From the sequence record NC_014792.1: 64,000 nt of DNA; one strand, 5' to 3'. Shown here piece after piece: positions 5,505-14,045 of the stretch. Position 1 is the stretch's first letter. The number at the start of each line of letters is the position of its first letter. The DNA comes from Escherichia phage vB_EcoM_VR7. The translations under genes were made by a program, and so were the position numbers. Under the pieces are notes generated by a model that saw only the letters and a program-made list of their open reading frames with translations, had not been told where the DNA came from and searched no databases.

Positions 5505-7064
5505 ATGAAAAAGAATGCATTAGTTCAAAAATGGTCCGCTCTGCTGGAAAACGAAGCTCTTCCTGAAATCGTTGGTGCTTCTAAACAAGCTATCATCGCT
5601 AAAATCTTTGAAAACCAGGAACAAGATATCCTGACCGCTCCAGAATACCGTGACGAAAAAATCTCCGAAGCATTTGGTTCTTTCCTGACCGAAGCTGAAA
5701 TCGGTGGTGACCATGGTTATGATGCTACCAATATCGCCGCTGGCCAGACCTCTGGTGCAGTAACTCAGATTGGGCCGGCAGTTATGGGTATGGTTCGTCG
5801 TGCTATCCCGCATCTGATTGCGTTTGATATTTGTGGCGTACAGCCTCTGAACAACCCGACTGGCCAGGTATTTGCCCTGCGTGCAGTTTACGGTAAAGAC
5901 CCTGTAGCTGCTGGTGCTAAAGAAGCTTTCCACCCGATGTATGCTCCGAACGCTATGTTCTCCGGTCAGGGTGCTGCTGAAGCTTTCGAACCTCTGGCTG
6001 CAAGCAAAGTTCTTACCGTTGGTAAAATTTATTCTCACTTCTTCGAAGCAACCGGTTCCGCACACTACCAGGCCGTTGAAGCTGTAACCGTTGATGCCGC
6101 CGCTACTGATGCTGCTAAACTTGACGCTGAAGTTACCAAACTGCTCGAAGCTGGTAAACTGGCAGAAATCGCTGAAGGTATGGCTACCTCTATCGCCGAA
6201 CTGCAGGAAGGTTTCAACGGTTCTCAGGATAACCCGTGGAACGAAATGGGCTTCCGCATCGATAAACAAGTTATCGAAGCTAAATCCCGTCAGCTGAAAG
6301 CAAGCTACTCTATCGAACTGGCACAGGACCTGCGCGCTGTTCACGGTATGGACGCTGATGCCGAATTGAGTGGTATTCTGGCTACTGAAATTATGCTGGA
6401 AATCAACCGCGAAGTTATCGATTGGATTAACTACTCCGCACAGGTTGGTAAATCTGGTATGACCAACACCGTTGGCGCTAAAGCTGGTGTGTTCGACTTC
6501 CAGGACCCGATTGATATCCGTGGTGCTCGTTGGGCTGGTGAAAGCTTCAAAGCTTTACTGTTCCAGATTGATAAAGAAGCCGCTGAAATCGCTCGTCAGA
6601 CCGGTCGTGGTGCAGGTAACTTCATCATCGCTTCCCGTAACGTAGTTAACGTACTGGCTGCAGTTGATACCTCTGTATCTTATGCTGCTCAGGGTCTGGG
6701 TAAAGGTTTCAACGTTGACACCACTAAAGCCGTGTTCGCTGGTGTTCTGGGTGGCAAATACCGTGTCTACATCGACCAGTATGCTCGCGCAGATTACTTC
6801 ACCATCGGTTACAAAGGCGCTAACGAAATGGATGCTGGTATCTACTACGCACCATATGTTGCACTGACCCCGCTGCGTGGCTCTGACCCGAAAAACTTCC
6901 AGCCAGTTATGGGCTTCAAAACCCGTTACGGTATCGGTATTAACCCGTTCGCTGACCCGGCAGCTCAGGCTCCGACCAAGCGTATTCAAAACGGCATGCC
7001 GGACATCGTTAACAGCCTCGGCTTGAACGGTTACTTCCGTCGCGTATATGTTAAAGGAATTTAA
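5505..7064 (+). CDS. 23: Major capsid protein gp23
   Basis: 519 aa; very strong codon bias; position and size as T4 gp23; followed by a strong terminator. Confidence 0.97.
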   Translation: MKKNALVQKWSALLENEALPEIVGASKQAIIAKIFENQEQDILTAPEYRDEKISEAFGSFLTEAEIGGDHGYDATNIAAGQTSGAVTQIGPAVMGMVRRAIPHLIAFDICGVQPLNNPTGQVFALRAVYGKDPVAAGAKEAFHPMYAPNAMFSGQGAAEAFEPLAASKVLTVGKIYSHFFEATGSAHYQAVEAVTVDAAATDAAKLDAEVTKLLEAGKLAEIAEGMATSIAELQEGFNGSQDNPWNEMGFRIDKQVIEAKSRQLKASYSIELAQDLRAVHGMDADAELSGILATEIMLEINREVIDWINYSAQVGKSGMTNTVGAKAGVFDFQDPIDIRGARWAGESFKALLFQIDKEAAEIARQTGRGAGNFIIASRNVVNVLAAVDTSVSYAAQGLGKGFNVDTTKAVFAGVLGGKYRVYIDQYARADYFTIGYKGANEMDAGIYYAPYVALTPLRGSDPKNFQPVMGFKTRYGIGINPFADPAAQAPTKRIQNGMPDIVNSLGLNGYFRRVYVKGI

Positions 7065-7084: not shown

Positions 7085-7115
7085 AAAGGGACCCTTGAGG
7101 TCCCTTTCTTGTTTT
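7085..7115. terminator. Rho-independent terminator after gene 23 (possibly bidirectional)
   Basis: gggacc-cttga-ggtccc hairpin flanked by an A-run and a T-run. Confidence 0.8.
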
Positions 7116-7396
7116 CATACCATACCATTTAAATGAACTTCTACCCGGCGCTTGATGAGGTCTCTGAAATTAACACTGTTCTCTTGAAGTTTCAACCAGT
7201 TACCTGATTTGTCTTTGGTGTGTGTAGAATAATTACCATTCCACCAAAAATCAGTATCATATGCTAAGTTTTCATATTTTTTAACTAGTTTGTTCAGAGC
7301 ATTACCATTAACACCATTTGGGTATTTGTTGACCAATGCAACAACTTCAATTTCCAGATTTTTAAAGGTATTCCGAAGGAAAGATACTTTGTTCAT
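7115..7396 (-). CDS. Hypothetical protein (93 aa from internal ATG; ORF track gives 97 aa to 7408)
   Basis: Opposite strand to the late genes; GGAG SD before the ATG at 7396; early-type promoter (GTTTAC, ~18 nt, CATAAT) directly upstream. Confidence 0.4.
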   Translation of the reverse strand: MNKVSFLRNTFKNLEIEVVALVNKYPNGVNGNALNKLVKKYENLAYDTDFWWNGNYSTHTKDKSGNWLKLQENSVNFRDLIKRRVEVHLNGMV

Positions 7397-7430
7397 TTTA
7401 GACTCCATTGTTTGGTAACTCAGTATGAAA

Positions 7431-7466: not shown

Positions 7467-7478
7467 TTTATAAATAAA
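7467..7478 (+). promoter_or_regulatory. Late promoter for gene 24
   Basis: Exact TATAAATA ~25 nt upstream of the gene 24 ATG. Confidence 0.7.
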
Positions 7479-7501
7479 GTATATCACAAAAGGAAAGCGC
7501 A

Positions 7502-8782
7502 ATGGCAAAGATTAACGAACTGCTGCGCGAGTCAACTACTACATCCAGCAACTCATTAGGCCGCCCGAATCTTGTTGCTTTGACCCGCGCTACAACTAAA
7601 TTGATTTACCGCGATATCATCGCTGAACAACGTACTAACCAGCCTGTTGCTGCGCTGTACGGTGTTAAATATATTACTCCTGATAATGAATTCAGTTTCC
7701 AGACTGGTGCTACTTATGGTGGTGAAGTCGGTTCTAAAGACCGTACAACTATTCCAGAATTAGCCACAGCTACTCAGCCTGTTGCTAAAGGCGAATATGT
7801 AAAATATCAAAATATCGTTTACAAAGCTCTGGTGGATAATCCATTTGCAACGACTACAGAAACAGTATTATCTGATGTTCTACAGGAAGGTCTTATTGCA
7901 TCGACTATTCGTTTAGTTCCTGATGCAGCGCATACCGAGAAATTTGAAGCCGGTGATGTTGAAATTAGCAACGCCGTGTTCCAGGTTAATAAATGGAATG
8001 CTCCTGTTAAATCCCGTAAATTGAAAACTGCACTGACTGTTGAACTTGCTCAGGATATGGAAGCAAACGGTTTTAATGCTCCTGCTTTCCTGGAAGACCT
8101 GCTTGCAACTACCATGGCAGACGAAATTAACAAAGATGTTCTGCAGTCTCTGATTACCGTTTCCAAGCGTTATAAAGTCGCTGGCATTTCTGATAAAGGT
8201 TTCATCGATTTGACATATGATTCAGCTCCAGAAGGCGCACGTAAACTGTACGAACTGGTTTGCGAAATGAACTCTGAAATTCAGAAAACTACATCTTACT
8301 CTGGTACATTCGTTGTTGCCTCAAGTCGTGTGGCCGCGATGCTCGCCGGTTCCGGCTGGTTGAAACATAAACCTGAAGATGAACAATGGCTCCCGGAAAC
8401 CGCGTACGGCTATTTGATTAATGGTCTTCCTGTATTCTGTGATGTTAACAGTCCATTGGATTATGTAACCGTTGGCGTTAAAGAAAATTACGGTGGAAAC
8501 GAAGTCGTAGGCTCAATCTTCTATGCTCCTTATACCGAAGGCCTGGACTTAGATGATGAAGAACACGTAGGTGCGTTTAAGGTCATTGTGGACCCAGACA
8601 GCTTGCAGCCATCTATCTCCCTGATGGTTCGTTATGCACTTTCAGCCAACCCTTATACCGTTGCTAAAGACGACAAAGAAGCTCGTATTATCGATGCAAC
8701 TAATATGGATTTAATGGCCGGCCAGAGCAACATGTCTTATCTGCTCGGTGTTAAACTTCCACCAATCATTTATGAGGCGTAA
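7502..8782 (+). CDS. 24: Capsid vertex protein gp24
   Basis: Near-identical N-terminus to T4 gp24 (MAKINELLRESTTT...GRPNL...TRATTKLIY) and conserved blocks (KSRKLKT, VELAQD, EINKDVLQSLITVSKRYKV, ANPYTVAKDDKEARIID). Confidence 0.95.
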   Translation: MAKINELLRESTTTSSNSLGRPNLVALTRATTKLIYRDIIAEQRTNQPVAALYGVKYITPDNEFSFQTGATYGGEVGSKDRTTIPELATATQPVAKGEYVKYQNIVYKALVDNPFATTTETVLSDVLQEGLIASTIRLVPDAAHTEKFEAGDVEISNAVFQVNKWNAPVKSRKLKTALTVELAQDMEANGFNAPAFLEDLLATTMADEINKDVLQSLITVSKRYKVAGISDKGFIDLTYDSAPEGARKLYELVCEMNSEIQKTTSYSGTFVVASSRVAAMLAGSGWLKHKPEDEQWLPETAYGYLINGLPVFCDVNSPLDYVTVGVKENYGGNEVVGSIFYAPYTEGLDLDDEEHVGAFKVIVDPDSLQPSISLMVRYALSANPYTVAKDDKEARIIDATNMDLMAGQSNMSYLLGVKLPPIIYEA

Positions 8783-10066
8783 ATGCAAAAGATTAACGCA
8801 CTAATTCACGAATCAACATTAACGGCGGCCAACCAGGTCGCCCGTCCTAATTTGCTTTCTTATACTCGGGCTACGAATAAACGAATTTTTAAAGCTCTTG
8901 TGGCCGAACAGAAAACTACTCAGCCAGTCGCAGCGCTGTATGGCGTTCGTGTTCTGAACCCAGATGATAAAATGACTTATCTTGGTGGAGCAACATTTGC
9001 AGGCCAGATTGGTATGTTCGAGCGTAAGAATATTCCAGAATTTACGAACAAAGACGAAGCTTATGCAGTCGGCGACATGTTCCAGTTTGAAAGCATTGTA
9101 TTCAAAGCTTTGGAAGCTTCTCCTTTTGCCGGGACCCTCGAAACTGATTTGGGTGAAGTTATTTCTGAAGCCATTGCGGCTGGCCATATAAGAATGATGT
9201 CAGATGCGGCTTTCACTGATAAATTTGAACAAGGACATCCTGAAATTGCTGAAGCCGGTTTCCGTATCGATAAATGGCAGACTGAAGTTAAATCTAGAAA
9301 ACTGAAAACCTCTTTAACTGTTGAGCTTGCGCAGGACCTGGAAGCAAATGGTTTCGATGCAACAGACTTCATTGATAATATCCTCGGTATTCAAATGGCA
9401 GAGGAAATTAATAAGGACGTACTGCAATCTTTAATTACCGTAAGTTCACGTTTTAAAGTCCAGGGTGTTTCCGAAAAAGGTGTACTTAATCTTACTGATG
9501 CCGCTTATGATAATGCTCAGGACCGTGCTCGAACTCTGTATTATTATATGTGCGAAATGAATTCCGCAGTTCAACGTCAGACTTCGTTCGCTGGTACATA
9601 TGCAGTCGCTTCTTCCCGTTGTGCAGCTATTTTAGCCGCTTCTGGCTGGGTTGAGAAAAAGGAAGACCAAGATGAATTGGCCTATGGTGTTCTGAAGAAC
9701 GGTTTGCCACTTTATGCAGATATGAATAGCCCGTGCGATTATGTTATTGTTGGTGTAAATGCTGATATGGGTGAAGGTCAGACGGTCGCATCTTTGTATT
9801 ATGCGCCTTATACGGAAGGTCTTAGTGAAGTTGATGATGAAGGTGACACCTCGGTTGGGGAATTCAAGGTTATTGTTGACCCTGAAAGTTTACAGCCTAC
9901 AGTTGCACTGTTAGCTCGTTATGCACTGACTGCGAACCCTTATACCGTTGCTAAAGACGATAAAGAAGCTCGCATTATTGATGGAGCTGATATGGATAAG
10001 ATGGCTAACCAAAGCCAATTGAGTTCTTATCTTGGTGTTAAACTTCCACCACTGGAAAAAGAATAA
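8783..10066 (+). CDS. Second gp24-like capsid vertex protein (tandem paralog)
   Basis: 427 aa; shares the same conserved blocks as gp24 but is diverged overall (~55% identity by eye); start 1 nt after gene 24 stop; terminator follows. Confidence 0.9.
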   Translation: MQKINALIHESTLTAANQVARPNLLSYTRATNKRIFKALVAEQKTTQPVAALYGVRVLNPDDKMTYLGGATFAGQIGMFERKNIPEFTNKDEAYAVGDMFQFESIVFKALEASPFAGTLETDLGEVISEAIAAGHIRMMSDAAFTDKFEQGHPEIAEAGFRIDKWQTEVKSRKLKTSLTVELAQDLEANGFDATDFIDNILGIQMAEEINKDVLQSLITVSSRFKVQGVSEKGVLNLTDAAYDNAQDRARTLYYYMCEMNSAVQRQTSFAGTYAVASSRCAAILAASGWVEKKEDQDELAYGVLKNGLPLYADMNSPCDYVIVGVNADMGEGQTVASLYYAPYTEGLSEVDDEGDTSVGEFKVIVDPESLQPTVALLARYALTANPYTVAKDDKEARIIDGADMDKMANQSQLSSYLGVKLPPLEKE

Positions 10067-10088
10067 GGGCCTTGCGGCCCTTTTTCTT
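10064..10088. terminator. Rho-independent terminator after the second gene 24 copy
   Basis: gggcc-ttgc-ggccc followed by TTTTTC. Confidence 0.8.
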
Positions 10089-11091
10089 ATGATACTAATT
10101 CAACCCATACTGGTCGCAATACTTCTTTGACCATTTCAATTAATTCTTTCTTAACTTCTGATGGGTTATCGGTTTGTTCTAGTGTAATTCCTTCACGAGC
10201 CGATTCTTCCAGAATATCCTGGACAGTCAAACCCATTACCTTACCAAAATCTTTAGTAGTTACTTTACCAATCTTACTGATAACGTTATTAACGCGATTT
10301 AATGTAACATAACAAGCCAGAATACTAAGCAAATTATTGTCGATTTCAGACAGTTCTACTTTAGCTTTAATAGGTTTATCAGACTTTTTCTTTTCACTGA
10401 ACTTAGAGTTCTTACATTTAATCGCTACGCGATTACCGTTTGGGGCCCATTTAGGATAACATGGCTTTAGAACATAACCTTCGGCGGTAAATGTCTCGCC
10501 TTTAGCTTCAGCTTTCCAAACATGGCTGTTGGCTTCAGTCAATCCGACATTATCAACCATGAAATTATAATCAGGAACAACTGAATCTAAGTCATTTGGC
10601 AATTGAATAAGGTCTTCAAATTTACCACGCCCTAATAACGGGGCAATTTTAAAACCGAATGATTTACAGAATGAATGCATCATGTAATCATCGACATAAG
10701 TCTCATCACCACTTTCGGTCGTAACGATAATATCGAACACATAAAAGTCTTTTGTGCCATAATCAACGCCTTTCTGGATTCCGCCGCCCGCAAACTCACC
10801 AAATACCTGATAAGATACGGCAGCCGCAGTTTCCATGATTTCTTGTACAGCTTTAATAGAATCAGCGTAATTCTTCAATACAATTTCATAACCATAAAAG
10901 TCTTCAGCTGGAAGAATGGGCCCGGTGCGCTTAGCGCACGTTACTGCATCACGTTCTATGATTAAACTAAAGTTGGTTCCATGAATCTTCTCACGTGCTA
11001 CCCATTCACCATCGGTCATACCATGGGTACGGAGTTTTTCAATGAACTTATTGTTGTAGTGGTTTTCAAGACTCGAATATTTCTTAAACAT
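10087..11091 (-). CDS. rnlB: RNA ligase 2 (Rnl2)
   Basis: N-terminus [13 protein letters not shown]...[15 protein letters not shown]...CAKRTGPIL matches T4 Rnl2 including the ligase KxHGxN motif; 334 aa. Confidence 0.93.
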
Positions 11092-11815: not shown

Positions 11816-13099
<1,284 letters not shown>

Positions 13100-13226: not shown

Positions 13227-14045
13227 ATGGCTATTACATTAAGTCCATCTTCAATAGACGTAGAATACGGTGACTCTTATACAGTCACTGCTAATATTCC
13301 AGATATTAGCCCTGGTTCATCTATTGTGTATAACTGGACTAAGAATAAAAAATTTATTAGTTCCGGAACTAATGTATTCACTGAAATAGCATCATCGGTA
13401 GAAACATTCAGTATTGCGTGCCGAATTGAAATTATATCACCGGATAAAAACACTGAATATATTTTATCGGATTCTTGCTTGGTTAATGTTAGTAAAAACA
13501 CAAAAGCGGACGGTATAAATTCTCAGCTAGTTTATTCACCAGATGTTCATAAAATAGGTGACCAAGTTATTCTTTCTGTAGAATCCCATCATGTAGACCC
13601 TGGCTATATTAAAGGAGTTATTTGGAAAGATCCATCGGGTAATGTCGTGTCAATTGGTAAAGAATATACGCATAAGATTAAGACGACAGAAGATGTTGTA
13701 GATGTAAAAATAGATTTGGCTTCTGAAAATTATGCCTATTACAATAAAACACTTCAAATTGTTCTTAAAGCTGTTGAAGAAGATAATTCGGAGTGTAGTG
13801 TAAGATATATTCATCCTTTAGACCACAGGGATTCAGGATACATCTGGATGGGTTGGTGGGTTATGGACGAAATTGAAAGGGCGACGGTAGAAGGATTAAA
13901 TTGGAAAGCGCCGGACGGTACTGACCTGAAGTATAAGTGTGACTTGAAAACTCTTTCTATAATGCTTGACTTATATAATAATGTTGAAGTACAAGAATCA
14001 AGGAATGGTTATATTCTAAACAGGGCAGATTTACTTCCAAAATAA
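13227..14045 (+). CDS. Hoc-like protein paralog (Ig-like domains plus Hoc-type C-terminal capsid-binding domain)
   Basis: C-terminus (YIHPLDHRDSGYIWMGWWVMDEIERA...YNNVEVQESRNGYILNRADL) parallels the C-terminus of the canonical Hoc here and in T4 (YVHPLP..SAYIWCGWWVMDEIQK...YPEVDVQESRNGYIIH). Confidence 0.8.
   Translation: MAITLSPSSIDVEYGDSYTVTANIPDISPGSSIVYNWTKNKKFISSGTNVFTEIASSVETFSIACRIEIISPDKNTEYILSDSCLVNVSKNTKADGINSQLVYSPDVHKIGDQVILSVESHHVDPGYIKGVIWKDPSGNVVSIGKEYTHKIKTTEDVVDVKIDLASENYAYYNKTLQIVLKAVEEDNSECSVRYIHPLDHRDSGYIWMGWWVMDEIERATVEGLNWKAPDGTDLKYKCDLKTLSIMLDLYNNVEVQESRNGYILNRADLLPK

Follow-up and report, generated by a model that had tools for sequence, protein, structure and literature searches.

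The closest described relative of the locus considered here is gene 24 of phage T4, which encodes the capsid vertex protein gp24, a protein whose first 10 residues are removed by the prohead protease (PMC9546572). Tandem pairs of gp24 genes are already known, both as annotations and in print, and are ordinary for the phage group concerned. In JS98, GenBank names the pair 24a and 24b, and these are orthologs at the same locus and in the same gene order as the genes described below; the same pair is annotated as capsid vertex protein I and II in phages VR5, VR20, VR25 and VR26, and as head vertex protein I and II in S16, Melville and CGG4-1. The 2019 genome announcement for Melville states that there is a tandem duplication in S16 and Melville (PMC6486254). 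Here we describe the pair in Escherichia phage vB_EcoM_VR7 (NC_014792.1), within a stretch of 64,000 nucleotides that was analysed whole and is referred to as the window. The second copy, 24b, is an old, intact and strongly constrained paralog that is inherited together with the first and differs from it in elements predicted to contact neighbouring subunits; it may form pentamers of its own at a subset of the capsid vertices.

Genes 24a (7502–8782, + strand, 426 aa; capsid vertex protein I) and 24b (8783–10066, + strand, 427 aa; capsid vertex protein II) follow a head-gene cluster with the order 20-67-68-21-22-23, in which gene 23 (5505–7064, + strand; Pfam Gp23, 1.6e-122) encodes the major capsid protein and is annotated as gp23 in JS98 and VR25. 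An earlier note on this DNA had described two adjacent and intact gp24-like genes of 426 and 427 aa, about 55% identical by eye, where T4 has a single gene 24. The description stands, as the open reading frame (ORF) coordinates and a full-length BLASTP alignment agree, the latter giving 56% identity and 75% positives (E = 4e-176), and one gp24 only is found in T4.

Both products match the Gp23 family (Pfam PF07068; 7e-99 for 24a and 2e-98 for 24b, both far over the gathering cut-off) and fall within phrog_138, as PHROGs does not split the two copies; NCBIfam has no model for either. Over their full lengths 24a is 70.8% and 24b 55.7% identical to T4 gp24, and 24b is nearer to gp24 than to gp23, matching T4 gp24 among PDB sequences at 8e-149 and gp23 at just 1e-11. 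An AlphaFold2 model of 24b (mean predicted local distance difference test score 74.5, with low confidence in the N-terminal 33 residues and the 348–357 loop) has as its best match T4 gp24 in the mature capsid (5VF3), with a template modelling score of 0.80, compared with ~0.58 for gp23. The position downstream of gene 23, a late-promoter motif and a short propeptide motif in both copies are likewise of the gp24 type.

Promoter, Shine-Dalgarno and terminator calls were made as motif matches. The T4-type late-promoter motif TATAAATA is matched 19 times in the window, where chance alone would give 4.8, and one of these matches lies at 7469–7476 (+ strand), 26 nt upstream of the 24a ATG; no second TATAAATA is present on the + strand from gene 23 to the end of 24b. 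A Shine-Dalgarno sequence, AGGA, is read 7 nt before the 24a start (7491–7494, + strand), and that of 24b, GAGG (8774–8777, + strand), is within the final codons of 24a, whose stop codon, TAA (8780–8782), directly adjoins the 24b ATG (8783). The two codons abut or overlap in all seven lineages compared (as TAA-ATG, TAATG or ATGA), an arrangement that permits translational coupling of 24a and 24b. At the other end a GC-rich, terminator-like hairpin (AAGGGCC-TTGC-GGCCCTT and a T run; 10065–10082) overlaps the final bases of the 24b stop codon and is common to the 24a-24b unit and to rnlB (10087–11091, − strand; Pfam), the convergent gene that follows. With one predicted motif upstream and one terminator-like hairpin downstream, these signals support a single late promoter and a single terminator for the pair, as the earlier note had proposed, together with translational coupling.

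The closest relatives carry the same arrangement. In nucleotide sequence the window region matches Escherichia phage vB_EcoM_VR25 at 93.8% identity over 6 kb and VR26 at 92.8%, and its 24b protein is 100% identical to the 'capsid vertex protein II' of VR26. At least 91 phage records contain a protein at least 80% identical to the window 24b, and Enterobacter phage MY742 also carries both copies; 24b genes as a whole come from several genera and from numerous metagenome contigs. A search with the divergent copy from the Erwinia phage FBB1 adds Erwinia phages Cronus and IT22, and also finds two gp24-like genes in Gelderlandvirus phages (S16, STML-198, STP4-a, Melville, CGG4-1 and SEA1), Proteus phage ABTNLPp2, Dhakavirus phages and the VR/TH phages. 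The order 23, 24a, 24b is present in each of the eight loci read (the window, JS98, VR25, MY742 and four divergent metagenome contigs), and in every case examined 24b has 24a directly upstream. T4, a Moonvirus and a Jiaodavirus have a single copy, with no remnant of a lost 24b within ~4 kb on either side of gene 24.

The earlier note had suggested a phylogeny of gp23 and gp24 homologs as a check, and a tree was built by neighbour joining from 135 gp24 sequences (419 columns, 200 bootstraps). The 24b clade is monophyletic with a bootstrap of 100 (25 sequences), and 24a joins T4 gp24 and other enterobacterial gp24 proteins with a bootstrap of 98. Because 24b is excluded from that group, 24a is assigned as the T4 gp24 ortholog on the basis of the tree, and 24b as an old gp24 paralog. 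The 24a clade contains three groups. The basal one (bootstrap 100) includes FBB1, the one member checked, which has two copies; the JS98/VR/MY742 group (bootstrap 100) has 39 members, of which 18 were checked and carry two copies; and the T4/CC31/Moon/PM2/PEi20 group (bootstrap 87) has one copy in T4 and Moon, the members checked, the exceptions being two metagenome lineages (L012 and L013) with two.

The two copies have similar histories. Pairwise distances for 24a and 24b correlate across 15 genomes in which they are co-resident (r = 0.81, Mantel p = 2e-4), the deepest split in either tree is alike, separating the FBB1 type from the rest, and lineages that keep 24b diverge by up to 38% in 24a. 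With moderate confidence, these comparisons indicate that 24b already existed when FBB1-type and T4/JS98-type phages split, and the single gene 24 of T4 may, at a similarly moderate level of confidence, reflect secondary loss rather than the ancestral state. Two further observations concern inheritance. In L012 and L013 (metagenome contigs SRR22802695_265 and SRR22560167_1071) the 24a gene belongs to the mostly single-copy T4/CC31/PM2-type clade, and 24b is about twice closer than expected to another two-copy clade (b/a distance ratio ~0.5), which hints that one gene of the pair has been exchanged laterally. An origin of 24b from a Jiaodavirus-like phage was considered from its 63% identity to a Klebsiella phage gp24 and rejected; the signal is not specific, because Jiaodavirus gp24, which has a short branch, is about equally similar to 24a (0.646) and 24b (0.622).

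Both copies are under strong purifying selection, and that on 24b is about as strong as that on gp23. The ratio of nonsynonymous to synonymous substitution (dN/dS) between the window and JS98 is 0.049 for 24a, 0.024 for 24b and 0.048 for gp23, and between the window and MY742 it is 0.076, 0.092 and 0.113, respectively. When the paralogs are compared with each other, synonymous sites are saturated (proportion of synonymous differences, pS, 0.68), which bears out the earlier view that the duplication is old. The stem leading from the common ancestor of the two copies to the crown is 0.18 substitutions per site for 24b and 0.06 for 24a, and the 24b crown (0.18) is shallower than that of 24a (0.25). 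Rapid early change and then tighter constraint would be expected of a copy with a distinct role and not of a redundant spare. The suggestion that the second copy is partly redundant is accordingly the one claim of the earlier note that is disfavoured, as 24b is constrained like the major capsid protein (dN/dS 0.02–0.09) and has clade-specific fixed changes. The note's other suggestion, that the second copy may form alternative or special vertices, is compatible with these data.

No gene conversion between the copies was detected, as the identity of 24a to 24b within a genome equals that between genomes in every 90-nt sliding window. The paralogs do share an identical run of 26 nt (~8666–8691 and 9950–9975; alignment nt 1165–1190), and the 60 nt around it (alignment nt 1141–1200), encoding NPYTVAKDDKEARIID, are 87% identical, whereas the rest of the pair averages 60%. 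Gene conversion at this run was considered and rejected; the stretch is equally conserved between genomes, its synonymous positions included, and its conservation is thus attributed to constraint.

The differences between the copies are unevenly distributed. Eighteen sites are fixed differently in the two clades, eight of them within residues 21–68 (p = 2.6e-4), and at 14 of the 18 it is 24a that keeps the state of the other gp24 lineages used as an outgroup. Identity between the clade consensus sequences is lowest at residues 61–80 (0.30), corresponding to I-domain linker 1, followed by the N-arm at residues 21–40 (0.40) and residues 281–300 (0.45), which overlap the AP loop region, and it rises to 0.8–0.9 in the C-terminal core and around the spine helix. 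The AP loop was placed at approximately residues 280–287 by aligning gp23 residues 384–400 to gp24. In or just after this position most 24b proteins have a deletion of 4 aa relative to 24a, present in 19 of 25 sequences and absent from the FBB1 type, which is of full length. The 348–359 loop is longer and more acidic in 24 of the 25. In T4, residues 26–29 of gp24 form a parallel beta interaction within the pentamer, pairing with an I-domain linker of the adjacent subunit; residues 11–20 reach onto the neighbouring hexamer, and the AP loop touches a neighbouring gp23 (PMC9546572). When mapped through the text of that paper and the gp23–gp24 alignment, the 24b changes lie in contact elements, and the body of the fold is conserved.

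Processing by the prohead protease also appears to have been kept. The N-termini read MAKINELLRE/S in 24a and MQKINALIHE/S in 24b, compared with a propeptide of 65 residues in gp23. Glu10 and Ser11, the cleavage position in T4 gp24, are invariant in an alignment of 48 sequences, and the pattern L/I-x-E-S is kept in 25 of 25 24b N-termini, with the residue preceding the Glu varying freely. We infer that 24b is cleaved after Glu10 in the manner of gp24; the invariance of these two residues points to selection on 24b to stay a protease substrate, which would imply that it enters proheads.

These observations are brought together in an explanation to which we give about an even chance of being correct as a whole, and of which the evolutionary part is much firmer than the full statement. 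Both 24a and 24b would be functional, processed capsid vertex (penton) proteins made from one late transcript, with their abutting stop and start codons holding the ratio of the two roughly fixed. The 24a protein would retain the ancestral role of T4 gp24. The 24b paralog would be older than the split of the FBB1/Cronus-type, JS98/VR-type and T4-type lineages, and would have changed in a burst, through substitutions concentrated in the N-arm and linker 1 of the I domain and through insertions or deletions affecting the AP loop region and the 348–359 loop, after which it became more constrained than 24a. In the virion it would form homopentamers at particular vertices among the 11 that do not hold the portal; a possible division that fits near-equimolar synthesis is between the five portal-proximal and the six distal vertices.

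Several points weigh against this explanation. In T4 all 55 processed gp24* subunits are alike across the vertex classes (PMC9546572), so that geometry alone does not require two proteins, and since the FBB1-type 24b lacks the deletion in the AP loop region, the deletion is not essential to 24b function. The assignments of changes to interfaces are taken from the text of the T4 paper rather than from a contact calculation. The tree is distance-based, which is a weakness, support is low where 24b attaches to the rest of the gp24 lineages (bootstrap 16–32), and an early lateral transfer is possible. In the literature we found no study of the second copy by proteomics, genetics or structure determination, and no virion proteomics, knockout or cryo-electron microscopy for any two-copy phage; T4 gp24 is the sole gp24 entry in the PDB.

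A more specific version, which we regard as doubtful, assigns pentons to positions in the prolate head, e.g. with 24b at the five portal-proximal vertices or at the apical one only, and 24a at the rest; the single gp24 of T4 would then be a simplification after the loss of 24b. If this were so, vertex identity would be genetically encoded and the pair would offer a handle on pentamer placement in the assembly of a prolate capsid.

It is also conceivable, although rather unlikely in our view, that the two proteins are interchangeable, either one building all 11 vertices and the second serving as a conditional back-up at certain temperatures, in certain hosts, in the gut, or in escape from a host defence that senses the capsid. 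The full fold and the cleavage motif are kept in both, and capsid composition, including gp24, affects the resistance of T4 to environmental stress (PMC10580926). The VR phages are low-temperature isolates. As to defence, the CmdTAC system acts against T-even phages. The capsid protein gp23 is the trigger of CmdTAC, and we know of no defence system that senses gp24. The genetic arrangement argues the other way. The copies are predicted to be co-transcribed and their stop and start codons abut or overlap in every lineage compared, so that neither should be conditionally expressible alone; 24b is never found without 24a directly upstream in the cases examined; and the clade-specific fixed changes are located in contact elements, where interchangeable subunits would not be expected to diverge.

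Mixed pentamers, in which each vertex holds both 24a and 24b subunits, seem quite unlikely. The abutting codons do suggest co-production at a fixed ratio, and the core of the A and P domains, i.e. the body of the pentamer, is highly conserved between the copies (consensus identity 0.8–0.9 at residues 181–220 and 381–400). However, two types of subunit cannot sit symmetrically in a five-fold ring, and the differences in the N-arm and linker 1 look more like a co-evolved homotypic interface, as part of the N-arm in T4 pairs with an I-domain linker of a neighbour in the same pentamer.

We consider it distinctly improbable that 24b acts outside the mature virion, whether as a prohead-only or assembly-phase protein (a nucleator, or a placeholder that is later replaced) or as a soluble decoy. 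The long stem branch shows a shift in function that would suit such a role, and 24b is a virion protein by prediction. Yet 24b keeps the full-length gp24 fold, I domain included, and an invariant protease site, and a late-promoter motif in a head-gene cluster combined with constraint at the level of gp23 is what would be expected of a shell subunit. Finally, that the pair arose as an assembly artefact (which the earlier note had named as grounds for abandoning its proposal) or by recent duplication, or that one copy is a decaying pseudogene, is refuted by the 56% identity, the saturated synonymous sites, two intact frames, the occurrence of the pair in over 90 independent phage records and in metagenome assemblies that are likewise independent, and the low dN/dS (0.02–0.09).

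Other features lie near the pair. Between genes 23 and 24a, and outside the pair itself, is a 97-aa ORF (7115–7408, − strand; phrog_6003, 2.6e-49) with homologs in VR25 (VR25_190) and JS98 (orf173) and none in MY742; T4 has the homing endonuclease gene segD where this ORF sits. A terminator-like hairpin 3' of gene 23 (7085–7107), identified by a consensus scan only, reads on both strands. Extra + strand genes with no Pfam match are present between 24b and rnlB in some of the divergent two-copy lineages, L011 (4890–6427; 346 and 165 aa), L014 (7326–8841; 337 and 166 aa) and L012 (7327–8046; 239 aa), and none in the window; these may be further head-associated genes.

Beyond rnlB is a gene for a 427-aa collagen-like protein that consists mostly of G-X-Y repeats (11816–13099, + strand; Pfam Collagen, 9e-42), and directly downstream of it a Hoc-like head-decoration gene (13227–14045, + strand; phrog_1149, 1.8e-57). 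The collagen-like gene contains a 90-bp tandem repeat (11911–12150; 2.7 copies, 95% identical), and the VR25 homolog is longer (1581 bp, ~526 aa), such that its length differs among close relatives. JS98 has no collagen-like gene at the same position, only hoc on the opposite strand. The 'tail fiber' label that PHROGs gives this protein probably comes just from the collagen repeats, and, judged by its Hoc-like neighbour, it could be a capsid fibre.

Work on T4 head assembly has long asked how pentamers are placed and length is set in a prolate capsid, and T4 offers one vertex protein only with which to approach this. Two vertex proteins kept under strong selection in several genera since before the split of T4 and JS98 would constitute a natural experiment, and should they occupy different classes of vertex, vertex identity would be open to genetic study. 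The single gene 24 described for T4 in textbooks may itself be a derived state.

Set beside the annotated gp24 pairs of other phages, that of the window shows no essential difference and is a further member of the group. With T4 gp24 (PDB 1YUE, 5VF3 and 7VS5) both copies have in common the HK97-type fold with an I domain, a 10-residue propeptide ending in L/I-x-E, the site downstream of gene 23 and the late-promoter motif. In contrast, T4 has one gene 24 and this phage two, and relative to T4 gp24 and 24a, the 24b protein carries fixed differences in its N-arm and in linker 1 of the I domain, is four residues shorter at the AP loop region, and has a 348–359 loop that is both longer and more acidic. 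The older duplication that gave rise to gp23 and gp24 is a further parallel, being likewise a tandem copy of a shell-protein gene in which one copy became specialised. The products of that duplication are ~21–28% identical and have known roles, in hexamers and pentamers respectively, compared with 56% identity for 24a and 24b; the T4 mutations in gp23 that bypass gp24 illustrate that the roles of such paralogs can overlap.

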